Notes: generated by a model not told the origin, from the sequence alone. Positions 43,924-45,114 are shown, numbered from the stretch's first letter. The stretch: DNA of 64,000 nt from Candidatus Eisenbacteria bacterium RBG_16_71_46 (GCA_001780165.1 MFFQ01000066.1:39082-103081), one strand, 5' to 3'. A program made the numbers and translations.

Positions 43924-45114
43924 ATGGCGCTGGATGCCGTGAAAGCACTCAAGAGCGAGTGGTCGACCCGGACCGAACTGGAGTCGGACAGCAACCTGAA
44001 GTACCCCGCGAATACGACGCGGCGAGCGATCTGCTACGCGGCCAAGATCTACAACGTCGCCACGGACGGTGGCGATTTCGCGCTCCCCACCATCGACGAT
44101 TACCTGTTCCTGAAGAGCGGTTCGACCGAGCGCGTCATCAGATCGAGAGTGTTGAAGATGGCGCAGCGAACCTATTCGTACAACCAGGGCAAGGGCCTGG
44201 TGCTCACCGATACCCGGCCGGGATTGGCCATCATCTATGTGGCGATGAATGGCTGGAAGGGCCGGTCGAACCAGCTCTTCATCGTCTTTCGCGGCTCGCG
44301 GGGGACCCCCCAGGGCGCCGAGAACGCGATGGGAGCCGGATGGACGCCCGCGAAGCCGGGCGAGCGGCCGGAAAACGTCGACTGGACGGCGAACTTCGAC
44401 GACGCGCAGGTCAGGTGGCCTCATGGCTCGGGGGATGGCAACGTGATGGTGCATCGCGGCTTCCTCTCGATCTACGGCAGTCTGCGCCAGACCGTGCGCG
44501 CCTATGCCCTGGTGGCGGGCGCGGCGATGCGCGCGGACGAGATCATCGTCACCGGCCATAGCCTGGGGGGCGCGCTCGCGACCCTGTGCGCCTACGATCT
44601 CAGCAAGGTCGTGGATTTCGCGCCAGTCGTTTGTCTCTCCTTCAACGCGCCCCGGGCCGGCAACGAGGCCTTCGCGAGGGATTGCAACCGATGGCTCGCC
44701 AGCCGGGCCTACACCTCCCGGACCGACGGGGGAGCGTTCAGCCGGAGTTTCCGCTTCGATCAACGGAACGACCCGGTGACCTTCGGGCAGCGGCACTCGG
44801 CCAAGAAGAACTACGTCGCGGACTACAAGGCGCTGACCGACCAACAGCGCGCCGCCGCCTCCGAAAAGACCGTCATGGGGAGGATCGGGATCACGAGCGG
44901 GCGTCGGGACGCGGTCATCGAGCATCACATCCAGAAGGGCAACACCGGGAGTGTCGCCGCGGGCGCGCTTGCCAAGGACACCGACTTCTCGAAGCCCTTC
45001 TATCACGTCAAGAACAAGGTCACGGTGTCCTTCGGTGGAATGCACTCCTTCACCGCCATGCTCGACAGCATCGTCGGCCAGGGCGCGAGCGGGACGCTCG
45101 GCATCCACGACTGA
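43924..45114 (+). CDS. Lipase class 3 (alpha/beta-hydrolase) protein; candidate T6SS phospholipase effector (Tle2/TseL-like).
   Basis: Nucleophile elbow GHSLGGALATLCAYDL typical of the Lipase_3 family. No signal peptide. Strong RBS AAGGGAGG. GC visibly lower than in flanking T6SS genes. Confidence 0.65.
   Translation: MALDAVKALKSEWSTRTELESDSNLKYPANTTRRAICYAAKIYNVATDGGDFALPTIDDYLFLKSGSTERVIRSRVLKMAQRTYSYNQGKGLVLTDTRPGLAIIYVAMNGWKGRSNQLFIVFRGSRGTPQGAENAMGAGWTPAKPGERPENVDWTANFDDAQVRWPHGSGDGNVMVHRGFLSIYGSLRQTVRAYALVAGAAMRADEIIVTGHSLGGALATLCAYDLSKVVDFAPVVCLSFNAPRAGNEAFARDCNRWLASRAYTSRTDGGAFSRSFRFDQRNDPVTFGQRHSAKKNYVADYKALTDQQRAAASEKTVMGRIGITSGRRDAVIEHHIQKGNTGSVAAGALAKDTDFSKPFYHVKNKVTVSFGGMHSFTAMLDSIVGQGASGTLGIHD

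Follow-up and report, generated by a model that had tools for sequence, protein, structure and literature searches.

A class-3 lipase encoded after clpV in a Candidatus Eisenbacteria T6SS cluster is a candidate cargo effector without an adjacent immunity gene

The window, which is the whole stretch of DNA that was analyzed, is 64 kb long, has a GC content of 70.3% and contains a complete T6SS-i cluster, extending from tssJ to clpV (26207-43789, + strand). The core genes tssJ-K-L-M-A-B-C, hcp, tagJ(ImpE) and tssE-F-G are located at 26207-40976 (TssF being named from the Pfam annotation of the identical protein in locus L081) and are followed by clpV (41024-43789), which encodes a protein of 921 aa with AAA_2, AAA_lid_9 and ClpB_D2-small domains. 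Directly downstream of clpV, on the same strand, a lipase of 396 aa is encoded at 43924-45114. Its NCBI entry is OGF13731.1, 'hypothetical protein A2W00_03655' of Candidatus Eisenbacteria bacterium RBG_16_71_46. The vgrG gene (48248-50410, + strand) is found 3.1 kb 3' of the lipase gene, beyond two opposite-strand genes, and is a candidate spike carrier for the lipase.

The full open frame that contains the lipase extends from 43861 to 45114 (+ strand), and the ATG that is used is at 43924. A strong Shine-Dalgarno sequence, AAGGGAGG (43909-43916, + strand), is read directly in the sequence, with a spacer of 7 nt to this ATG, and when the orthologs are aligned, all of them begin at the same methionine; as the ribosome-binding site and the ortholog starts agree, the 396-aa call is right. 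The stop codon of clpV and the ATG of the lipase are 134 nt apart, and 19 nt separate the stop codon of the lipase from that of the next gene, which is convergent (45134-46720, - strand; likely start at Met31, near 46630) and encodes a TPR protein with a class I SAM methyltransferase domain (TPR-MT). Hydropathy analysis of TPR-MT finds no hydrophobic N terminus or signal peptide, which points to a cytoplasmic protein, and neither of the two gaps is large enough to hold an adjacent immunity ORF. A consensus scan, which is weakly informative for this phylum, finds no σ70 promoter and no intrinsic terminator in the clpV-lipase gap and in the region 3' of the lipase gene. Since neither element is found between clpV and the lipase gene, the lipase gene is likely to share a transcript with the T6SS core operon.

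The protein matches Pfam Lipase_3 (PF01764) over residues 152-285 (E=6.3e-19; 68.7 bits versus a cutoff of 22). The nucleophile elbow GHSLGG (residues 211-216; 44554-44571) contains Ser213, which is encoded at 44560-44562, is invariant in 49 of the 49 members of the family alignment used for all conservation counts and aligns with the GHSLGG motif of Rhizomucor lipase. The catalytic acid, Asp283 of an NDP motif (44770-44772), and the catalytic base, His374 (45043-45045), are each conserved in 48 of 49 members. An FRGS motif (F122-S125; 44287-44298), which we take to be the expected oxyanion-hole region of class-3 lipases, has its RGS residues (123-125) invariant in all 49. About 150 residues are specific to the family, being those of an N-terminal three-helix region (residues 1-70; 43924-44133), with near-invariant R16, E20, R34, I42 and Y43, and of a helical insert between Asp283 and His374 (residues ~296-350; 44809-44973). 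This insert is longer in the Eisenbacteria clade, has pLDDT values below 50 at residues 312-325 and may possibly be a lid or cap.

The AlphaFold2 model, for which 17 family sequences were aligned, is confident (pLDDT 86.7, pTM 0.90) and has the three-dimensional fold of class-3 lipases; every α/β-hydrolase outside this class scored 7.7 or less against it. This is in agreement with the Foldseek and PDB sequence searches, and the two fold searches return generic class-3 lipase relationships only. No signal peptide or transmembrane segment is found, the maximal 19-residue Kyte-Doolittle mean being 1.28, with no window above 1.6. Class-3 lipase-like pseudo-enzymes exist, EDS1 being an example, but the triad and the RGS residues are essentially invariant among the 49 members, so that the family is predicted to consist of active enzymes. 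The protein is thus an intact class-3 lipase, made in the cytoplasm and predicted to be catalytically competent. These results bear out the initial annotation, which had described a 396-aa protein right after clpV, with the GHSLGG elbow of class-3 lipases and without a signal peptide, followed by a convergent, cytoplasmic gene and not by an adjacent periplasmic immunity gene.

The GC content of the lipase gene is 0.650, compared with 0.680 for ClpV, 0.735 for TPR-MT and a mean of 0.695 for the genes of the window. Equally low values are found for the core genes TssC (0.651), Hcp (0.627) and VgrG (0.641). The shortfall sits in codon position 1 (0.58), whereas GC3 is native (0.87; z=-0.05), and the synonymous-codon (KL) distance to the other genes of the window, 0.052, is typical; the low GC stems from the amino-acid composition only. 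No tRNA, structured RNA (Rfam) or flanking repeats are found as marks of insertion. Two sister species, those of L090 (lipase 80% identical) and L175 (88%), have the order ClpV-lipase-TPR-MT(convergent)-VgrG as well; their TPR-MT is 60-62% identical, and TPR-MT is kept beside the lipase in three Eisenbacteria-clade loci only. The dN/dS ratio of the lipase is 0.14-0.19, that of ClpV being 0.14. With native GC3, codon use and dN/dS and with this conserved synteny, the lipase gene is a long-standing, selected resident of the T6SS cluster. The lower GC content with respect to the flanking genes that had been noted earlier is therefore numerically correct but not anomalous, and the accompanying hint at horizontal transfer is contradicted when GC, codon usage, synteny in two species and purifying selection are considered. 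It is the module from the PAAR-like gene onward, not the lipase, that looks like a horizontally acquired effector/immunity island: GC3 falls there to 0.70-0.82 and codon use deviates (foreign stretch 51982-56720).

An exhaustive profile search against 1.84 billion representatives finds 47 clusters of full-length relatives at E≤1e-30 (about 47 when counted at 50% identity); beyond this threshold there is a sharp fall to core-only Lipase_3 matches, of which 25,254 are found at E≤1e-3. The lipase thus appears to belong to a small, previously undescribed Lipase_3 lineage. Its members come from Eisenbacteria, Gemmataceae, Gemmatimonadaceae, a 'Limnocylindrales' MAG, Gamma- and Alphaproteobacteria and unbinned metagenome contigs, the carriers so far being MAGs so labeled plus one isolate, Falsiroseomonas sp. 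E2-1-a20. In most members an N-terminal 4-Cys CxxC…CxxC motif precedes the three-helix region (L003 8876-10012; L005 9845-11080; L093 9797-11100; P0012, P0014 and P0019; most of P0121-P0156). In the AlphaFold2 model of P0012, this motif folds as two β-hairpins (pLDDT 72-87) and is zinc-ribbon-like. We know of no N-terminal zinc ribbon in described T6SS lipases. The 4-Cys ribbon is missing in the window clade and its nearest relatives, and comparison across the family suggests that the window clade has lost it.

T6SS genes are found around or beside the lipase gene in six lineages that are less than 50% identical to one another. The arrangement is ClpV-lipase in the window clade, Hcp-lipase in P0009, TssG-Hcp-lipase-GNAT-VgrG-DUF6931 in P0015 and TssA-B-C-Hcp-lipase in Gemmataceae L003; in L005 the lipase is located between TssG/VgrG and TssF, and in L093 it lies ~4 kb from VgrG, with an IS fragment in between and a gene that looks frameshifted. 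The lipase directly follows hcp in three of these six lineages. Recurrent linkage to hcp, vgrG and core genes across lineages, as is generally expected for T6SS cargo, is thus observed. When the background frequency of being near a T6SS is set at 2%, which is a rough assumption, the 6 linked loci among 14 informative ones correspond to a binomial tail of ~2e-7. At about 8 of the 14, no T6SS gene is present within the available flanks.

The gene 3' of the lipase differs each time, encoding TPR-MT, a TolC-like OEP, a GNAT, a D-Ala-D-Ala-ligase-like protein or DUF3738. When the six-frame ORFs found within ±4 kb at the 14 loci are compared all against all by BLASTP, nothing recurs among the neighbors except T6SS core genes and artefacts from antisense frames, and there is therefore no conserved cognate immunity protein or chaperone. 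On this comparison, the family-wide absence of a conserved neighbor argues against an adjacent immunity gene that is merely displaced in the window. What had been put forward initially, a candidate effector without a cognate immunity gene, is retained in this form, with six T6SS-linked lineages and no immunity gene, but without its Tle-type and foreign-origin framing. In one 34%-identical relative with the Hcp-lipase-VgrG arrangement (L170; GCA_037024635.1), a cytoplasmic GNAT acetyltransferase (2658-3251) occupies the expected place of an immunity gene, 3' of the lipase and before vgrG, and overlaps the start of vgrG by 4 nt. In L093, the N- and C-terminal parts of the lipase homolog (9797-11100) are in different frames and an apparent transposase fragment, seen by eye in the translated ORFs, lies between it and vgrG (8800-9700); this homolog may be a decaying copy or reflect a sequencing error.

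From the sequence data, the reading that we favor, with a probability of roughly 0.6, is that the protein is a T6SS cargo effector with lipase/PLA1-type activity, belonging to an undescribed Lipase_3 lineage. We infer its secretion, loading route, lipid substrate and target organism as follows. The lipase would be translated together with the T6SS core operon, fold in the cytoplasm, having no export signal, and be loaded non-covalently onto the spike or tube for export by the T6SS. Its size of 43 kDa exceeds that of typical Hcp-lumen cargo, which would make loading on VgrG or PAAR more likely than in the Hcp lumen, yet the gene is hcp-adjacent in three lineages. In the target cell, Ser213-Asp283-His374 would hydrolyze membrane glycerolipid esters, damaging the membrane; the substrate may be triacylglycerol, the sn-1 position of phospholipids or some other ester. 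The lineage would have been recruited to T6SS loci independently of Tle2.

Several observations count against a cargo effector. About 8 of the 14 informative loci have no T6SS gene in the available flanks, most family members carry the N-terminal zinc ribbon, and, as judged from dN/dS, the lipase shows the evolution of a core gene rather than that of an arms-race toxin. Pfam finds no T6SS loading marker or adaptor (PAAR, MIX, DUF4123, DUF1795, DUF2169) on or next to the lipase; DUF2169 and PAAR-like genes are present 7-8 kb away, in a separate module. A comparison by eye of the MIX motif with the conserved N-terminal helix, RRAICYAAKIY, gives no match. There is also no immunity gene, neither adjacent in the window nor conserved in the family. 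Tle lipases are usually inert in the cytosol of the producer (PMC11470151), and by analogy the missing immunity gene is compatible with such inertness, which leaves protection of kin unexplained. It is possible that the target lipid is absent from the producer, as in an anti-eukaryotic use, that the enzyme is kept latent by the lid-like insert, or that an immunity gene is present at an unlinked position.

A more specific proposal, which we hold only tentatively, is that the proteins form a distinct T6SS lipase family outside Tle1-6 that operates without cognate immunity. In such a family, the enzyme might remain latent until delivered, through gating by a lid or cofactor; alternatively, its targets might be lipids not present in the producers, such as those of protists or other eukaryotes. 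The ancestral zinc ribbon would then be a handle for loading on Hcp or VgrG, which the Eisenbacteria clade would have swapped for another loading mode.

The main rival reading, in our estimate unlikely, is a non-secreted cytoplasmic lipase or esterase that serves housekeeping or is an accessory to the T6SS, as in turnover or repair of membrane lipids co-regulated with firing, so that its position in the T6SS cluster would reflect co-regulation and not delivery. Such a role would fit a protein without export or loading signal and without an immunity gene, whose neighbors are cytoplasmic enzymes (TPR-MT, GNAT, ATP-grasp), whose codon use is native, with core-like purifying selection, and whose family loci are in the majority not T6SS-linked. 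The zinc ribbon of most relatives is likewise typical of cytosolic proteins. The T6SS exports folded proteins, so that the ribbon does not disqualify an effector, and orphan effector genes are common. What speaks against a non-secreted enzyme is the strong enrichment directly after hcp or beside vgrG, which is seen in six lineages and is classically the mark of a cargo effector. Also, we are not aware of any description of a T6SS accessory lipase.

It is improbable, and already disfavored by the sequence comparisons, that the protein is a Tle2 (TseL) antibacterial, periplasm-acting lipase whose immunity gene has moved to another place in the genome. The Lipase_3 domain has been assigned to Tle2/TseL, which is encoded next to vgrG, acts in the periplasm and is accompanied by adjacent immunity genes with signal peptides; Tle2 proteins have ~640-720 aa, with large N- and C-terminal regions, and one to three periplasmic Tli2/TsiP immunity genes, and the PAK island of Tle2 also carries a DUF4123 adaptor (PMC9846239, PMC9927574). 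The lipase shares with Tle2/TseL (V. cholerae VC1418; P. aeruginosa TseL-PA / Tle2-PAK) the Lipase_3 domain, the GxSxG motif, the Ser-Asp-His triad, the lack of a signal peptide and the T6SS locus, and a lipoprotein-like protein, u2 (55241-55792), is encoded 10 kb away. However, it has 396 aa, lacks the N- and C-terminal regions of Tle2, follows clpV (or hcp in relatives) instead of being vgrG-adjacent, and has neither an adaptor, DUF4123 being absent from the annotated genes of the window, nor an immunity gene, no immunity-like neighbor recurring in any T6SS-linked lineage. In place of TseL itself, the comparison used VgrG-linked Lipase_3 proteins from Pseudomonas and Desulfomicrobium as proxies for Tle2; these have 715-730 aa and carry the Lipase_3 domain at ~336-478. 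With one of these proxies, the VgrG-linked 715-aa protein of L078, the BLASTP alignment is restricted to residues 150-252 (34% identity). The family HMM gives the proxies 51-62 bits, for the core only, which places them at ranks 209-216 of 217, behind generic Lipase_3 proteins of cyanobacteria with 92-137 bits. Membership in Tle2 is thus rejected, as judged with these proxies: ~100 core residues are shared, and the length and architecture, the vgrG adjacency and the immunity gene of Tle2 are all missing.

The u2 protein is the sole lipoprotein-like protein among the window neighbors, as judged from hydropathy, and belongs to a different module in the compositionally foreign island. It is located between two paralogous proteins, u1 (54912-55244) and u3 (55830-56720), which have a common 32-aa N terminus that is 63% identical, and is more likely an immunity protein for these than for the lipase. 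The complete post-vgrG module (50418-56720, + strand) encodes a TIGR02270/HEAT protein, a Tox-PAAR-like protein, DUF2169, a PRK06147-like β-ketoacyl-synthase homolog, u1, u2 and u3.

The other known lipase effectors are also distinct. For Tle1, Tle3, Tle4 and Tle5, the family-specific domains, taken here to be DUF2235/PF09994 (Tle1), DUF3274 (Tle3), a Tle4-type α/β-hydrolase and the dual HxKxxxxD motif of PLD (Tle5), are not found in the lipase by the Pfam scan, and membership in these families is rejected on this assignment. The framing as a Tle-type phospholipase is therefore not upheld, the tie to Tle2 being the generic Lipase_3 core and no expected Tle Pfam family being present; by its domain content, the protein is best described as a T6SS-associated serine lipase, similar to the Tle enzymes but apparently not a member of Tle1-5. 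Tle6 / Slp (Enterobacter cloacae Tle, Serratia Slp), which is also a T6SS lipase family beyond the original Tle1-5 scheme, is always paired with ankyrin-repeat immunity proteins that activate Tle6 (PMC11470151), whereas no ankyrin or other conserved partner is found near the lipase; this distinction is made from the published description of Tle6. Lipase_3 is also a module of other secreted effectors, namely XopAP (Xanthomonas T3SS), predicted C. jejuni CJPI-1 T6SS lipases and Xanthomonas T4SS X-Tfe proteins (PMC8285248), from which the lipase differs in delivery system and architecture. XopAP (NF041407) is its best NCBIfam match, but membership is rejected, the score of 25.1 bits, for the core only, being far under the cutoff of 400. 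The classical class-3 lipases, which are the fungal lipases and feruloyl esterase A (1uwc, 1tgl), the plant PLA1 enzymes of the DAD1/DSEL type (7x0c, 7x0d, 2yij) and the Photobacterium M37 lipase (2ory), are secreted or organellar proteins with signal or transit peptides and are 17-23% identical in sequence to the lipase, which differs from them by its family-specific N-terminal helices, its ~90-aa Asp-His insert and its T6SS context. The PADLOC anti-phage defense models match the lipase with 0 families. Literature searches directed at the T6SS of Eisenbacteria and at T6SS lipases gave no description of an Eisenbacteria T6SS or T6SS effector, and among T6SS lipase families other than Tle1-6 none similar to the lipase was found.

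Finally, it is very improbable that the gene is horizontally acquired cargo, unrelated to the T6SS and inserted by chance after clpV: a GC content of 0.650 between genes of 0.68-0.735 could suggest it, but it is effectively refuted by the native GC3 and typical codon-usage distance, the lack of a tRNA, structured RNA or flanking repeats, the gene order conserved in relatives whose lipases are 80% and 88% identical, and the dN/dS of 0.14-0.19.

T6SS lipase effectors are a well-known weapon class, and a lipase in a T6SS cluster is by itself unsurprising. What is new is a separate Lipase_3 lineage, apparently not Tle2, that is repeatedly wired into the T6SS clusters of poorly studied, mostly uncultivated phyla. 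Also new is the consistent absence from this lineage of effector-immunity pairing, which is regarded as near-universal among antibacterial T6SS toxins. Secretion of the lipase, if it occurs, would extend the catalog of lipase effectors by one family, offer a case in which to study how kin killing is avoided by a membrane toxin that has no immunity protein, and give a hint as to whether Eisenbacteria and similar subsurface and soil lineages use the T6SS against bacteria or protists. A non-secreted enzyme would, to our knowledge, be the first example of a lipase in a T6SS-accessory role.

Some further features of the locus are as follows. In the region 5' of the T6SS cluster (10774-26041), a PpkA/PppA-like pair is encoded, in which the Ser/Thr kinase carries a PEGA domain and the phosphatase is of the PP2C type; a σ54 enhancer-binding protein containing TPR and GAF domains is encoded there too. 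By analogy with Pseudomonas, where such control of the T6SS is known, this implies that the cluster would be under post-translational and σ54 control. Several independent assemblies of the same organism end 0.3-0.5 kb 3' of the lipase (L081 11192-11703; ends of L082 and L085); in L081 the final ~180 nt match TPR-MT in reversed orientation, and in L082 and L083 ClpV is split or partly rearranged. Such breaks suggest strain heterogeneity or assembly problems at the 3' junction of the lipase. The TPR part of TPR-MT has sub-threshold matches to T3SS chaperone models (LcrH/SycD, 4e-17). In an operon with TPR-MT and divergent from vgrG, a sheath-like paralog of ~500 aa is encoded (46650-48281, - strand; likely start ~48152), in addition to the canonical TssB/TssC pair of the cluster. 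It has a weak VipA region fused to a VipB N-domain and is without the VipB_2 (gp25-like) C-domain. Neither of the sister loci, L090 and L175, has the paralog at this position, and more than 800 homologs, annotated just as 'sheath large subunit', are found in Rokubacteria, Competibacteraceae and Burkholderiales.
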